DNA of 64,000 nucleotides from Akkermansia muciniphila (GTDB taxonomy: Bacteria > Verrucomicrobiota > Verrucomicrobiia > Limisphaerales > F1-80-MAGS106), in the NCBI GenBank assembly GCA_945865375.1, contig CAMBEJ010000009.1, positions 479 to 64,478 on the forward strand. Direction: 5' to 3'. This document shows, one piece after another, positions 5,755 to 52,625 of the stretch. The notes beneath the pieces are model-generated. The model ran no database searches. It was not told the DNA's origin and saw nothing but the letters and a program-made list of their open reading frames with translations. Each line of letters starts with the position of its first letter. The first letter of the stretch is position 1. Position numbers and translations under genes: made by a program.

Positions 5755-5860
5755 GCGTTGTGGTGTCGTACAATCCAGACTGTGTTCATTGGCGGTGACA
5801 TTACGATTTGTCGCGCCACCCGGTCAAGCGGAGGAAGAGGGCGAGCAGCAGTTCTCATTT

Positions 5861-6082
5861 TCAGACCTCAGTAAAACCGGTTGAAATCGTGATCTGGGCG
5901 CGCAACCCCAATTCCTCCATTTTTCGTAATCGTAATCGTAATCGTAATCCTCGGGTGTTGCCCTTGAAACAGAGGGGTGGATTACGATTACGATTACGAT
6001 TACGATTACGATTAGGAGCAGGAGCAGGGAATTGGAGTTGCTCGAGCATCAGGCTAAACAGGGTCGTTTTACTGAGTTCAGA
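5861..6082 (+). mobile_element. Foldback MITE-like element, copy A (hexamer-arm element)
   Basis: Terminal inverted repeats tcagacctcagtaaaac (5861-5877) and gttttactgagttcaga (6066-6082). Subterminal complementary gcaacYccaattcc blocks. Left arm (cgtaat)x4, a 32-nt central spacer, right arm (attacg)x5 plus attagg, then (aggagc)x2. Confidence 0.8.
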
Positions 6083-6101
6083 TTTTGAAAAATGACTGAA
6101 G

Positions 6102-6131
6102 GCAGGGTCTCCGGCATGCCGGAGACCCTGC
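6102..6131. repeat. Perfect 30-bp GC-rich palindrome flanked by 13-bp direct repeats; possible bidirectional terminator or tiny insertion
   Basis: gcagggtctccggcatgccggagaccctgc equals its own reverse complement. attttgaaaaatg occurs at 6082-6094 and 6138-6150. Confidence 0.75.
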
Positions 6132-6239
6132 CCCCACATTTTGAAAAATGGAACTGCTGCATTTGTGTCCGGAACATTGCGCTTGCGCCTGTCGTGTGAA
6201 AGGATCGCGGGACGTCGTTTTCAACGCACCTTTGCTTCT

Positions 6240-7778: not shown

Positions 7779-8582
7779 GTGCTCCACAATAAAGTCGTGT
7801 TCAGACCTTGCATTGATCTTCACGAGGGCCGGGTGAAACAGATAGTCGGCGGCACGTTGGGAAGTGATTCCAACGGCATGCGGACCCATTTTATTTCCGA
7901 GCAACCCAGCTCCTATTACGCCGAGCTTTACAAAAAAGATGGACTTCGAGGTGGGCACGTCATCCTGTTGGGCCCTGGAAATACGGTATCCGCAATGGAA
8001 GCGTTGCGCGCCTACCCAGGAGGTCTCCAAGTCGGGGGCGGTATCACCCCTTCCAACGCCGGTTCCTTCCTCGACGCCGGGGCTTCCCACGTGATCGTCA
8101 CCTCGTGGATCTTTCGAGAAGGCAGCCTCGATCTTCCACGGCTCAGCGAAATGGTGGCAACAGTCGGCAAAAACCGCTTGGTGCTGGACTTGAGCTGCCG
8201 ACGCAAAGGCCCGGATTATTTCGTCGTCATGGACCGTTGGCAAACCTTCACCGACCTGAAGGTCAACAAGGAAACCCTCGAGTTGTTGTGTCACTTTTGT
8301 GACGAATTCCTCGTCCACGGGGTCGACGTCGAAGGCTTATGCCAGGGCATCGATGAAACGTTGGTTCAAAGGCTCGCCGAGGACTCGCCCCTGCCGAGCA
8401 CCTACGCAGGGGGCGCGCAAGCTCTGGGGGATCTGAAGCGCGTGACCGAGGCTAGCGGCAATCGGGTCGATCTCACGATCGGTTCGGCGCTCGATATTTT
8501 TGGAGGAGAAGGTGTGCGCTACGAGGATGCTGTCGAGTTCAACAGACGGGTGCCTGGGTCGCCTTGGATACCGCGTCCTTGA
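7779..8582 (+). CDS. hisA: ProFAR isomerase, eukaryotic His6-type HisA
   Basis: FRPCIDLHEGRVKQIVGGTL...THFISEQPSSYYAELYKKDGLRGGHVILLGPGN...GGLQVGGGI...VIVTSWIF...LVLDLSCRRK...EFLVHGVDVEGLCQGID...YAGGA aligns along its length with yeast His6 as I remember it. GTG start; an alternative GTG lies at 7797. Confidence 0.75.
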   Translation: MLHNKVVFRPCIDLHEGRVKQIVGGTLGSDSNGMRTHFISEQPSSYYAELYKKDGLRGGHVILLGPGNTVSAMEALRAYPGGLQVGGGITPSNAGSFLDAGASHVIVTSWIFREGSLDLPRLSEMVATVGKNRLVLDLSCRRKGPDYFVVMDRWQTFTDLKVNKETLELLCHFCDEFLVHGVDVEGLCQGIDETLVQRLAEDSPLPSTYAGGAQALGDLKRVTEASGNRVDLTIGSALDIFGGEGVRYEDAVEFNRRVPGSPWIPRP

Positions 8583-10530: not shown

Positions 10531-11571
10531 ATGAACAGCCGCCCTTTATCCCCTTCTCCTTCCCCTTGGTCCCGTGTGGACTGGCGGGCGCTGTCGGGTC
10601 TTCGGGCCCGGTTCCTCGATGAATCCGCAGGGATCTCAGACTATTGGTCACAGGAATCGGATCTCGATAGTTACGATCTCACGTTCGGTCAGCGTATCGC
10701 CTGGAAATGGATGCATGTCTTGGAAGAACTGGCGCTGATAGGTTGGGAGCCGCCTCCGATTCGCGTGCTGGATTGGGGCTGCGGCAGCGGGGTTGCGGGG
10801 CGCGTTTTCTCGGAGCGTTTTGCCGGAACCACATTTTCAACACTGTCGGTTTGGGATCGCTCCTCGCTGGCGATCCGGTTTGCGGAGCGGCGCGCGTCGG
10901 AGCGGTTCCCCGGCCTCCTGGTCGAGGCGGGAATCCCTCCCTCAGAACCATTCACTTTATTGCTGAGCCACGTGTTGACGGAGCTCGATGAGGTTCAAAC
11001 GGAGGAACTGGTGGCCCTTTCGAGGCGTGCCGAGGCCGTGGTGTGCGTCGAGCCTGGGACTTATGGCGCAAGCAGACGTTTGATCCACTTTCGGGAGGCG
11101 CTTCGAGGGGATTTCCAAGTGGTGGCCCCCTGCTGTCACCAAGCCGCGTGCCCGATGCTCGAAAAGAATAACGCGCCTCATTGGTGTCATCATTTTGCAT
11201 GGCCTCCAGCGGAGGTGTTTACGGACTCCGATTGGGCGAAGTTTGCCACATTCATGGGCATCGATCTGCGAAGTCTGCCAGTCAGCTTCCTCGTGTTGGA
11301 TCGACGCGACAACATCCAGAGATTAGGTGGCATGACTCGACTCATCGGTCGGGCGCGCCTCTACAAACCGCATGCCTTGATTTTGGGATGCGAAGCGCAA
11401 GGGTTGACCGAGCCGAGGGTGAGCAAGCGATTGCATCCGGAACTTTTCAAAAAGCTCAGAAAAAATGAAACTCCGCCTTGGGTGCGCTGGGTTCATGAGG
11501 ACGGTCAGATGAAGGAAATCCACGAAATCCTTGAGTCATCAATCCTGGCGATGAATCTGCATCCGGGGTAG
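10531..11571 (+). CDS. SAM-dependent methyltransferase, Rsm22-like
   Basis: VLDWGCGSGVAG motif I plus a C-terminal Cys/His cluster CCHQAACPM...HWCHHF, as in Rsm22-family proteins. Start set at the ATG at 10531, because the track ORF runs through the relE 3' end. Confidence 0.5.
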   Translation: MNSRPLSPSPSPWSRVDWRALSGLRARFLDESAGISDYWSQESDLDSYDLTFGQRIAWKWMHVLEELALIGWEPPPIRVLDWGCGSGVAGRVFSERFAGTTFSTLSVWDRSSLAIRFAERRASERFPGLLVEAGIPPSEPFTLLLSHVLTELDEVQTEELVALSRRAEAVVCVEPGTYGASRRLIHFREALRGDFQVVAPCCHQAACPMLEKNNAPHWCHHFAWPPAEVFTDSDWAKFATFMGIDLRSLPVSFLVLDRRDNIQRLGGMTRLIGRARLYKPHALILGCEAQGLTEPRVSKRLHPELFKKLRKNETPPWVRWVHEDGQMKEIHEILESSILAMNLHPG

Positions 11572-11723
11572 GGAATCAGGCGGAACAGGCTCATTTTTCT
11601 GAGGTCCGAATGTGGGATGTGAATCGTGCCCATGAACCGCTCGGAGGGTGCGCAAAAAGAAGGGTTGGCATTGTTGGCCCTGGATCTAAGCTGATGACAT
11701 TCACGCAGTCTTTGGAGTGCTTT

Positions 11724-16802: not shown

Positions 16803-16840
16803 ATATTCGAAACGCGCGTTCCGTTGGCGCTCGGGGCGAG

Positions 16841-16988
16841 CCACCTCAATTCGTCCGTTTTTCCTAATCCTAATCTTCGAGTGTGATCTTTGAGAACAGC
16901 GATAGGGATTACGATTACGATTACGATTACGATTACGATTACGATTACGATTACGAGTAGGAGTAGGAGTAGGAGTAGGAGTAGGAGG
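16841..16988 (+). mobile_element. Degenerate, terminus-less copy B of the hexamer-arm element with expanded microsatellites
   Basis: gccacctcaattcgtccgtttttcctaatcctaatc matches the copy E/A subterminal block. This is followed by (attacg)x8 (16908-16955) and (agtagg)x5 (16956-16985). No ctcagtaaaac termini. Confidence 0.65.
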
Positions 16989-17083
16989 AAACGGGAGCAC
17001 GAAAAATCTGAGATGCGCCGCCAGGGCATCGCGCGGTTTCTTTGGAATTGACACTCTAAAACCGAAGCCTTACTCAGTATGGT

Positions 17084-17323
17084 ATGAAGATGACCATCCG
17101 CATAGACGAGGCACTCCTTGATTCTGTTAGGAAAGGCTATGGTTTTGAGAGCAAGACACAGGCGATCAACGCAGCGCTGCACGAAATGGATCGGCGCACC
17201 AAGTTGAGAGCCTTTGCGAAGACCGGCAAGGATTTCACAGCCGCTGAGCTCAAGGACGCCGTCGTGCCGGGCTACGACATTCTCGCAAGTCGTGGGATCA
17301 AGCTCAAGCGCCATGGCGGCTGA
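17084..17323 (+). CDS. vapB: Type II antitoxin, VapB-like (DUF2191/Arc-MetJ-like)
   Basis: MKMTIRIDEALLDSVRK...KTQAINAALHEM is a typical VapB/DUF2191 N-terminus. It overlaps the PIN gene by 11 bp. Confidence 0.55.
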   Translation: MKMTIRIDEALLDSVRKGYGFESKTQAINAALHEMDRRTKLRAFAKTGKDFTAAELKDAVVPGYDILASRGIKLKRHGG

Positions 17324-17723
17324 AGCAAGCACGGTGTTGGTGGACAGCAGCGTGTTTATCCATTTGCTGCGCCAAGGGATCGATCCGAACACAGAACTCA
17401 GCGCACGTGCCAAGCGGATGGACCTGGCTACCTGCGGCATGGTCCAAGTAGAAGTGCTCCGTGGAGTTCGGAACTCAAAGGTCGGCCAAAAGCTTCTCCG
17501 CTTCATGTCGGTGATGCTCTACGCTTCCACCGAATTCCGAACTTGGGATGCTGTAGCACGCCTGGCTTCTGAACTCGACCGCAAAGGAATTATCCTTCCC
17601 GCGCAGGACTTGATCATCGCCACCTGCGCACGACAGCTCGATGCTGCGGTTTTCACCCTCGACAATCATTTCCACCATGTCCCGGGCTTGCGTGTTATGA
17701 CGTCGCTGGACGAGTTGTGCTGA
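17313..17723 (+). CDS. vapC: PIN-domain ribonuclease toxin VapC
   Basis: VLVDSSVFIHLL (first acidic residue), MVQVEVLRG, ILPAQDLIIATCA, VFTLDNHF. PIN layout, ~136 aa. Confidence 0.65.
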   Translation: MAAEASTVLVDSSVFIHLLRQGIDPNTELSARAKRMDLATCGMVQVEVLRGVRNSKVGQKLLRFMSVMLYASTEFRTWDAVARLASELDRKGIILPAQDLIIATCARQLDAAVFTLDNHFHHVPGLRVMTSLDELC

Positions 17724-31709: not shown

Positions 31710-31795
31710 GAAGGGAGTGTGTCGCCCGGCTTGCAAAACGCAATAATCTCATTTAGATCTTCGGCCCACACGCAGCGGCACGCGGGCGGGCAGGC

Positions 31796-31981
31796 TCAGA
31801 ACTCAGTAAAAGCGGTTGAAATCGTGATCTGAATGCGCCACCCCAATGCCTCCATTTTTCGTAATCGTAATCCTCGGGTGTTGCCCTTGAAACAGAGGAG
31901 TGGAGCACGATTACGATTACGAGCAGGGAATTGGAGTTGCTCGAGCATCAGGCTAAACAGGGTCGTTTTACTGAGTTCAGA
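31796..31981 (+). mobile_element. Foldback MITE-like element, copy C (short arms)
   Basis: tcagaactcagtaaaag ... gttttactgagttcaga termini. Same central spacer cctcgggtgttgcccttgaaacagagg. About 2 hexamer units per arm. Confidence 0.8.
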
Positions 31982-32067
31982 GACTTCGCCACGCCTTGAG
32001 CTCAACGGCTATTTCGGACGACCGGATTGTTTGGTTTTGATCTTGCCGAATCGGGGGATGGGTTGGG

Positions 32068-45982: not shown

Positions 45983-46047
45983 TTCCCAGAAAACTTACCG
46001 GCGGGGAGGGATCGAGGAAAGCCGAAAATCACTGGTGAACCGGGACG

Positions 46048-46272
46048 GGGTGCAACTCACGTTACCCGGGGTCGCCTCCGCTGACAGAGGGTATCCCGCC
46101 GCTTGACTGCGCTCAAGTGACACCACGGATGACACGGATGACACGGATGAGGAAAGGGAGCTGAGATGGGTGCTTTATCCGTGTTATCCGTGGGTGCGCC
46201 AGTGAACTCTTCCCATTCCGCGGGAGGTATTGTCCTCCGAACGACCACTCCCGGAAACCGTGAGTTGCACCC
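46048..46272. repeat. ~225-bp foldback element with perfect 14-bp terminal inverted repeats and an internal 9-mer repeat hairpin
   Basis: gggtgcaactcacg (46048-46061) is the exact reverse complement of cgtgagttgcaccc (46259-46272). (cacggatga)x3 at 46124-46150 faces atccgtgttatccgtg at 46177-46192. Confidence 0.7.
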
Positions 46273-46302
46273 ACCGGGACGATGCCACCGATGTCTCAAA
46301 CT

Positions 46303-48242: not shown

Positions 48243-48345
48243 AAAGTCGCACCGGCGGCCAGTCGCCGTCTCCGGCAGAATCGGGACGGCTCTGCCACTT
48301 TAACGACAACCTGGGGATGAACGGCTCGCTCTGGTCGCCTCAAGC

Positions 48346-48579
48346 TCTGAACTCAGTAAAACGACCCTGTTTAGCCTGATCCTCGAGCAACTCCAATTCC
48401 CTGCTCCTAATCGTAATCGTAATCGTAATCGTAATCGTAATCCTAATCGTAATCCACCCCTCTGTTTCAAGGGCAACACACGAGGATTACGATTACGATT
48501 ACGATTACGATTAGGAAAAACGGAGGAATTGGGGTTGCGCGCCCAGATCACGATTTCAACCGGTTTTACTGAGGTCTGA
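48346..48579 (-). mobile_element. Foldback MITE-like element, copy D (inverted orientation, longest arms)
   Basis: tctgaactcagtaaaac (48346-48362) ... gttttactgaggtctga (48563-48579). The first arm has 8 hexamer units (6 perfect cgtaat). The other arm has (attacg)x4 plus attagg. Confidence 0.8.
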
Positions 48580-48624
48580 AGCTCGGCTCTTGTGGATCGT
48601 TGCCATTCAGTCTTACAGTCGCGA

Positions 48625-52143: not shown

Positions 52144-52170
52144 TCTTTAAAACGATGGCCCGGTCGTCTG

Positions 52171-52311
52171 GGAATTGTCGAATCCTTTGTTGCCTTGATC
52201 AGCCCGCGCACTTTCGAAACCCACCGCGCAAACCTGATGAGGAAGCTCGATCTGCGATCCCAGACCGATCTCGTACGGTTCGCCATCCGCAAAGGCATCA
52301 TCCAGCCCTGA
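52171..52311 (+). pseudogene. Remnant of a LuxR/NarL-type response-regulator C-terminal HTH (about 46 codons, no start, no receiver domain)
   Basis: The translation ...ESFVALISPRTFETHRANLMRKLDLRSQTDLVRFAIRKGIIQP* matches the LuxR HTH consensus (IS.kTVE.HR.nlM.KL......LVR.Ai..Gli). It is bounded upstream by the divergent Ig-protein start at 52143. MITE copy E lies 11 nt after the stop. Confidence 0.5.
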
Positions 52312-52321
52312 CCGGATCCCC

Positions 52322-52541
52322 CTGAACTCAGTAAAACGACCCTGCTGAGCCTGATGCTCGAGCAACTCCAATTCCCCGCTCCCAACCGTAATCGTAATCG
52401 TAATCGTAATCCACCCCTCTGTTTCATCAGCAACTCATCGGCAACACCCGTGGATCACGATTACGATTACGATTACGAAAAACGGAGGAATTGAGGTGGC
52501 GCTTGCAGATCACGATTTCAACCGATTTTGCTGAGGTCTGA
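52322..52541 (-). mobile_element. Foldback MITE-like element, copy E (inverted orientation, altered central spacer)
   Basis: ctgaactcagtaaaac ... gattttgctgaggtctga. (cgtaat)x4 and about (attacg)x3. The central spacer carries an extra catcagcaactcatcggc segment. Confidence 0.75.
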
Positions 52542-52625
52542 TCCCTGCTCCCATTGACTTCAGACCTCAGCTCTCCCCGCACCCCTGGCTTGCGCGAAGC
52601 TATTTTCCTTCCTAAGATGTGCGTG

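Follow-up and report, generated by a model that had tools for sequence, protein, structure and literature searches.

The 64-kb stretch of DNA analysed here (the window) carries a new MITE family, which belongs to a well-known class of mobile DNA and has an unusual design, a foldback armed with microsatellites. The element is very likely a non-autonomous DNA transposon that is moved in trans and whose arms change length by slippage. Several features of MITEs were found together: small size (under about 600 nt), multiple dispersed copies, terminal inverted repeats (TIRs), a target-site duplication and no coding capacity. A MITE-like foldback family had been proposed in the preliminary description of this DNA, and this reading is supported, with refined boundaries.

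The preliminary description had placed five copies with a shared foldback layout in the window. Repeat finding, Tandem Repeats Finder (TRF) and a profile HMM confirmed all five in place, four of them full (184-232 nt) and one truncated. Copy 1 (5862..6081, 220 nt) and copy 2 (31797..31980, 184 nt) lie on the + strand, while copy 3 (48347..48578, 232 nt) and copy 4 (52322..52540, 219 nt) are inverted and lie on the - strand. The arms of copy 2 contain only about 2-3 hexamer-like units each, and the spacer of copy 4 includes an 11-nt tandem duplication. The truncated copy (16827..16995, + strand) is missing both termini and retains the left subterminal block, two CCTAAT units, a diverged spacer, eight ATTACG units and five AGTAGG units. 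Repeat finding and TRF recovered the same families and hexamer runs. The profile HMM, built from the four full copies, gave E values of 2e-63 to 5e-77 for these and of 1e-17 for the truncated copy. Besides the five copies of this CGTAAT foldback element, two small terminal remnants were found on the + strand. One is a degenerate solo right terminus, GGAATCAGGCGGAACAGGCTCATTTTTCTGAGGTCCGA, at 11571..11608 (nhmmer E 0.004). The other is a solo 12-nt left terminus, TCAGACCTCAGC, at 52560..52571, which is inverted relative to copy 4, lies 19 nt beyond its left end and is probably the leftover of an adjacent copy. The core terminal motif GTTTTACTGAG (at most one mismatch) occurs eight times in the window against 0.6 expected, and the subterminal block GGAATTGGRGTTGC (at most two mismatches) eight times against 1.45 expected; neither count was reached by any shuffle. 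A 12-nt tandem repeat, AAAACCTTCAGT x3.2, was also noted at 1544-1581, and its minus strand has a one-mismatch match to the terminal core GTTTTACTGAG.

Read in the orientation of copy 1, the element opens with the terminus CAGACCTCAGTAAAAC, followed by about 25 nt that are unpaired with the other arm, the block GCAACCCCAATTCC, CCATTTTT and a run of CGTAAT units. A conserved spacer of about 32 nt, CCTCGGGTGTTGCCCTTGAAACAGAGGGGTGG, separates this run from a run of ATTACG units. The right part consists of one or two AGGAGC units, the complementary block GGAATTGGAGTTGC, about 25 unpaired nt and GTTTTACTGAGTTCAG. In copy 1, the left TIR lies at 5862-5877, the left subterminal block at 5902-5915 and the CGTAAT run at 5924-5949, with the spacer next; the ATTACG run lies at 5980-6014, the AGGAGC units at 6014-6028, the right block at 6028-6041 and the right TIR at 6066-6081. 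Copy 1 is predicted to fold as one long hairpin. Its DNA fold reaches -51 kcal/mol, compared with -24.3 +/- 3.4 for shuffled sequences (z = -7.9), and its RNA fold gives z values of -7.3 (+ strand) and -8.9 (- strand) against shuffles.

Contigs matching the window occur in the NCBI MAGs GCA_947484475.1 and GCA_947443885.1 and in several ENA lake-metagenome assemblies, and the nearest named relatives are Verrucomicrobiales. The exact 19-mer GGAATTGGAGTTGCTCGAG was used to scan GTDB representative genomes and JGI metagenomes. The GTDB scan returned 12 stretches with three real copies (L001, L003 and L011) in two MAGs, and the JGI scan returned 10 stretches with two real copies (L034 and L036). 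At the remaining 19-mer matches the rest of the element is missing, and they appear to have arisen by chance. Gene callers sometimes predict an open reading frame (ORF) across the element, so the translated element was searched against a protein collection. These searches returned 15 and then 10 short domainless ORFs, each marking another copy, and the contigs of those ORFs gave the loci L038-L053 and L071-L072. With the window included, 12 full copies and several partial ones were obtained; the loci read beyond the window number at least 17, and ORFs alone point to about a dozen more. Copies measure 184-262 nt, or 352-545 nt where they hold nested inserts. The dispersed copies occur in both orientations, are all intergenic and are 85-98% alike by eye in segment alignments. 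The right arm is invariant across all copies, which reflects ascertainment bias rather than constraint because most copies were retrieved via that block. MAG GCA_947446415.1 carries an identical methyltransferase gene with copy 1 (L066), as well as L042 and L051; several of these copies thus come from the same species as the window.

Outside these sources, no copies were found in the viral contigs scanned, and BLAST searches of plasmid and phage collections produced nothing beyond chance matches of about 27 nt. Judging from public data, the element family is confined to an uncultured freshwater Verrucomicrobiales lineage. Literature on its sequence strings and on MITEs in Verrucomicrobia yielded no prior description. 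The earlier impression that the family has no catalogued equivalent was borne out by the lack of an Rfam, plasmid, phage or literature match. At one public locus, a called CotH-family gene (L071, 5783-8476) extends 14 nt into the left terminus (8463-8476) and stops at a TGA there; the insertion has apparently taken the place of this gene's final few codons.

The ends of the element were fixed from the 12 full copies, four in the window and eight from related public contigs. The true ends are CAGACCTCAG...CTGAGTTCAG, which form a 16-nt imperfect TIR with the consensus C[A/T]GA[C/A]CTCAGTAAAAC and with 10-14 of 16 positions paired in each of the 12 copies. Aligned termini show that the two ends are distinguishable, the left always reading CAGA(C/A/G)C...CGGTTGAAATCG and the right always ...GGGTCGTTTTACTGAGTTCAG. 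The element is flanked by a 5-bp target-site duplication, roughly A-N-N-N-T, in which position 1 is usually A and position 5 usually T. The preliminary description had reported a 17-nt TIR. A TIR does exist, and its length is 16 nt: because the duplication usually starts with A and ends with T, an outer T...A pair that belongs to the duplication had been included.

Over the 12 full copies, the left and right flanks match at 43 of 60 positions, compared with 26.1 +/- 3.1 in permuted left/right pairings; a value of 43 did not occur in any of 100,000 permutations. The three inner flank positions alone match at 24 of 36, a value that was likewise reached by 0 of 100,000 permutations. Copy 1 has the duplication ATTTT/ATTTT (5857..5861 and 6082-6086). 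Copy 3 has an exact duplication, AAGCT on the + strand (48342-48346 and 48579-48583), or AGCTT in element orientation, and AGCTT/AGCTT also flanks L039, a locus independent of copy 3. Flanks are also exact at L051 (AACCT/AACCT) and identical over 6 bp at L050 (TCATAA/TCATAA). Matches at four of five positions were found at copy 2 (AGGCT/AGACT, 31792-31796 and 31981-31985), L038 and L042. The duplications of copy 4 (GGGAT/GGGGAT) and L011 match only with a one-base offset, and the flanks of L041 and L001 match at only 2-3 of 5 positions. Two other readings were weighed against the 5-bp reading and rejected: a TIR of 17 nt with a duplication of 3 bp, and a fixed TCAGA target. The 5-bp reading was preferred because, counting outwards from the element, left base 5 equals right base 1 and left base 1 equals right base 5 in most copies. 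A direct target duplication is the footprint of staggered-cut (DDE-type) integration. The target-site duplications show that the element has transposed.

These duplications also bear on another mode of movement, in which the element would be a single-stranded-DNA hairpin element, either REP/BIME-like (RAYT) or derived from IS200/IS605, with a transposase that recognises the fold and not a TIR. The very strong foldback fits such a mode, and the other foldbacks in hexamer arms (described below), together with the palindromic context of copy 1, hint at hairpin targeting. However, elements moved by REP/RAYT or IS200/IS605 single-stranded chemistry leave no target-site duplication, whereas the 5-bp duplication is significant here. 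The window also has no Y1 transposase gene. REP/BIME sequences share with the element an intergenic location, a palindromic structure and multiple copies, but they are 20-40 nt long and have no duplication; the element is about 200 nt long, or 5-10 times REP length, has ends of the form CAGA.../...TCAG and carries both TIRs and a 5-bp duplication. A GTAG or CGTC head is described for most REPs (PMC3733652), and the ends of the element have no such head. Movement as a single-stranded hairpin is accordingly judged highly improbable, and transposition of a TIR-bounded MITE is preferred.

Several sequences beside the termini deserve mention in their own right. The motif GCAGCAGTTC(T/C)CAT(TTT) abuts a terminus of three copies, in the window (5845-5861 and 6144-6160), at L038:16384-16400 and in the right flank of L041. 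It may represent a target preference or an outer element. Around copy 1, 5845-5861 forms an inverted repeat with 6144-6160, so that copy 1 seems to be inserted in the AT-rich centre of an older palindrome. Directly adjoining copy 1 is a segment (6082-6150) with a 40-nt GC-rich near-perfect hairpin (6097-6136), which lies in 43 nt between exact 13-nt direct repeats, ATTTTGAAAAATG (6082-6094 and 6138-6150). The first of these repeats includes the right duplication of copy 1. This hairpin segment resembles another small insertion, and the window has no other copy of it.

The statement that the window holds no transposase held up in Pfam scans of the main ORFs and in the genes annotated on matching contigs. 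Neither the window nor the fetched loci contained an autonomous partner that shares the TIRs. Three candidates were considered and rejected as partners. An IS630-like element in L039 has unrelated 35-nt TIRs, and neither a DDE_Tnp_1 gene in L024, which has no matching terminus nearby, nor a transposase fragment in L048, which spans just 48 residues of a 562-position profile, could be linked to the element. When the minus frame and five other terminal frames served as protein queries, no transposase was retrieved, and the only matches were spurious ORFs of at most 164 aa.

Mobility of a MITE-like kind, as first suggested, is supported both by the target-site duplications and by the lack of the element at the corresponding gene junction in the closest other species. 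In that species, whose DusB is 89% identical, the DUF4890-dusB spacer measures 114 nt, compared with 490 nt including copy 3 in the window, and it is too diverged to give a base-precise empty site. All sampled assemblies of the source species carry copies 1-4. The arms had been described as slippage-prone, which agrees with single-hexamer differences between otherwise identical assemblies at copies 1 and 3. At copy 1, eight assemblies have one ATTACG unit more than the window in an intergenic region that is otherwise identical. At copy 3, five assemblies have one TAATCG unit fewer than the window and L018, and the rest of the 491/497-nt intergenic region is identical. Copies 2 and 4 are invariant between assemblies. 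Among paralogs, the left arm has 2-6 units and the right arm 2-13 (at most one mismatch per unit), and the two arms vary independently. Logan short-read contigs repeatedly start or stop inside the element, as expected of a multi-copy repeat. In one assembled contig (L063; ENA ERZ27280192 k141_1020830), the right end of copy 1 is joined to another locus instead of the TolC-like gene. The alternative flank, AAGTTGCCGG..., lies beside a glucosamine-6-phosphate isomerase-like gene, and the join reflects either genuine recombination between copies or a chimera that the repeat induced during assembly.

Pfam scans of neighbouring ORFs, together with the genes annotated on matching public contigs, show that all four full copies in the window are intergenic. 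The neighbours of copy 1 are genes for an FkbM-type methyltransferase (-) and a TolC-like protein (+), and those of copy 2 encode a methyltransferase (-) and a pyridine-nucleotide-disulphide (flavoprotein) oxidoreductase (+). Copy 3 has a DUF4890-like gene (+) on one side and dusB (+) on the other, and copy 4 separates an Ig-domain protein gene (-) from lptF/lptG (+). Three of the four thus have divergently oriented genes on either side, and 46 nt separate the end of copy 3 from the downstream dusB start annotated in public assemblies. The truncated copy begins about 25 nt past the stop of a gene for a 1730-aa ThuA/DUF7133/cytochrome c protein, and the degenerate solo terminus (11571-11608) stops one base short of the ATG at 11610 that opens this ORF. 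Just downstream of the truncated copy lies a gene pair for a VapB antitoxin and a PIN-domain (VapC-like) toxin (17084-17723). An open frame at 52144-52311 (+), wedged between the start of the Ig-protein gene and copy 4, encodes only the C-terminal helix-turn-helix of a LuxR/GerE-type regulator (...ISPRTFETHRANLMRKLDLRSQTDLVRFAIRKGIIQP*), as read from the translation. It has no receiver domain or obvious start and is probably a gene remnant.

This arrangement raises the question of whether the host makes use of the element. Copies in promoter-bearing spacers could alter the expression of neighbouring genes, and the gain and loss of hexamers could act as a contingency-type switch through spacing or hairpin stability. 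Such a role would add to the MITE explanation and not replace it. It would be in keeping with the divergent genes around three of the window copies, with the position of copy 3 close to the dusB start and with the differences in hexamer number between populations. Promoter activity has also been reported for the BrickBuilt MITE of Porphyromonas gingivalis, which has an internal tandem repeat (PMC4596501). Against host use, neither a sigma-70-like promoter nor an intrinsic terminator was predicted within copies 1 and 3. Copies show no consistent orientation towards the genes beside them, other copies occupy spacers of the convergent or tail-to-head type, and the substitutions look neutral. Host exploitation is therefore considered unlikely.

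The open frames across the element could suggest a small gene on the minus strand. This frame encodes a peptide of about 60-75 aa, MLEQLQFPA-(NR)n-PPLCFKGNTRG-(LR)n-KMEELGLRAQITISTGFTEV, which ends at a TGA inside the left terminus. It is open from end to end in 9 of the 12 full copies and is predicted by gene callers in public assemblies. However, hexamer units inherently preserve any reading frame, the copies share recent ancestry, and the opposite strand is equally open in several of them. Substitutions are spread over the three codon positions as 18/23/21, with no third-position excess. Copies 4 and L001 are frameshifted, and L041 has stops from a nested insertion. No Pfam domain was found, and among 5.8 billion protein clusters only short domainless ORFs match, with no homologs outside the element's own copies. 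The even codon-position counts and the frameshifts led to rejection of a protein gene, which is judged extremely improbable.

The long hairpin could instead be the functional product of structured non-coding RNA genes or of cis-regulatory RNAs. Both strands fold far better than shuffled sequence, and the apical spacer of about 32 nt is well conserved among copies. The two outer stems, however, show no two-sided change against 35 one-sided changes, a one-sided count inflated by a few because the subterminal block of L038a was mis-located by the script. The absence of two-sided changes indicates that pairing is not maintained by selection. With Rfam, only a tRNA reaches the gathering score in the window; the best match on the element scores 15.5 bits against a gathering score of 48, and no family was matched even at E up to 10. 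Stem length varies freely, and copies occur in both orientations and in every gene context. The flanking duplications mark the copies as insertions, and some copies are truncated or interrupted by nested elements. A structured RNA was rejected since the stem changes are never compensated, and this reading is held to be very unlikely. Taken together, the lack of codon-position bias and of compensatory stem change makes either a protein gene or a selected RNA unlikely.

Compared with known systems, the element is closest in kind to the bacterial MITEs, which include Correia/NEMIS (Neisseria), RUP (Streptococcus pneumoniae) and Nezha (cyanobacteria). Common to these and the element are TIRs, short duplications, the lack of coding capacity, dispersed intergenic copies and the ability to fold back. 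Bacterial MITEs are about 100-400 nt long and depend on a transposase in trans; the element is of similar size and probably shares this dependence. In contrast to them, its TIR matches none of those compared, its stem consists largely of complementary hexanucleotide microsatellites, and no parent insertion sequence is known. Correia/NEMIS elements have a 26-nt TIR and a TA duplication, whereas the element has a 16-nt TIR of different sequence and a 5-bp duplication. The Tn3-derived inverted-repeat miniature elements (TIMEs) have Tn3-type TIRs of about 38 nt that start with GGGG and a 5-bp duplication. TIMEs and the element are both non-autonomous with a 5-bp duplication, but the TIR of the element is 16 nt long and starts with CAGA/CTGA. 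Since a defining feature is lacking in each comparison, the element is neither a REP/BIME nor a Correia element nor a Tn3-derived TIME.

A similar architecture is known from eukaryotes. The Foldback (FB)/Galileo elements of Drosophila have arms of hundreds to thousands of bases and longer duplications, and Galileo belongs to the P-element superfamily. These elements therefore differ from the one described here in being eukaryotic and in having far longer arms and longer duplications. Their inverted arms are also made of short tandem repeats (PMC3573991) and vary widely in length. By architecture, eukaryotic Foldback/Galileo elements can be regarded as the closest analogue, with no homology implied. 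Among bacterial elements, BrickBuilt is a partial precedent, described as having an internal tandem repeat, as always intergenic and as present in about 19 copies per genome (PMC4596501). Its repeat is a direct 23-nt minisatellite between short inverted ends (PMC4596501), while the element has 6-nt units in two complementary arrays that pair.

Other repeat-armed foldbacks were found in the same lineage. A second, unrelated foldback lies in the window at 46048-46272 (46039-46281 with flanks), has the termini GGGTGCAACTCACG and CGTGAGTTGCACCC and sits between identical direct copies of the 9-bp sequence ACCGGGACG, a target duplication of 9 bp. The core of this second foldback is a hairpin composed of 9-mer units, CACGGATGA x3 and TTATCCGTG x2 (CACGGATRA units). 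A paralog at L042:15545-15761 is about 90% identical and has one extra right-arm unit. Some copies of the CGTAAT family have foldbacks nested in or beside their hexamer arms, at L041:5626-5979, L072:53-597 (the same as L071:8463-9007) and L003:4166-4340. In L041 and L072, the nested foldback has CACAGAG-type repeat arms, and in L041 it is flanked by the 7-bp repeat TAATCCT. Another nested foldback, bounded by CACTACAGCGACA and TGTCGCTGTAGTG, is present in L072 and L003. In L003, a CACGGAT-type hairpin is enclosed by the CACTACAGCGACA/TGTCGCTGTAGTG element and replaces the CGTAAT core. Repeat-armed hairpins are thus a possible but unproven shared theme or preferred target in this lineage. More specifically, although this is considered improbable, the hairpin of complementary tandem repeats could be a functional module common to several unrelated foldbacks. 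Such hairpins may be preferred landing sites for one another's insertions (hairpin/microsatellite targeting). Alternatively, one arm may be copied from the other by hairpin-templated synthesis. Either form of the module, if true, would be a bacterial counterpart of eukaryotic Foldback elements.

A life cycle can be proposed for the element as a MITE. The footprints suggest that a transposase supplied in trans would cut the target with a 5-bp stagger and leave the A-N-N-N-T duplication. The two complementary blocks and the complementary (CGTAAT)n/(ATTACG)n runs make the element a foldback. Replication slippage is the presumed cause of the unit differences seen, with the hexamer runs gaining and losing units independently in each arm. 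Copies would settle in the intergenic DNA of every gene arrangement and would then decay through one-sided substitutions, truncation and nested insertions.

A new bacterial MITE family is in itself routine, since MITEs are common in bacteria. The element nevertheless has practical consequences, as it breaks short-read assemblies of these MAGs and creates spurious small "genes" in public protein databases. A stem of complementary microsatellites that differs in length between populations is a design for which no bacterial description was found. With its recurring, mutually nested repeat-armed foldbacks, this lineage may offer a natural system for the interplay between hairpins or microsatellites and transposition.
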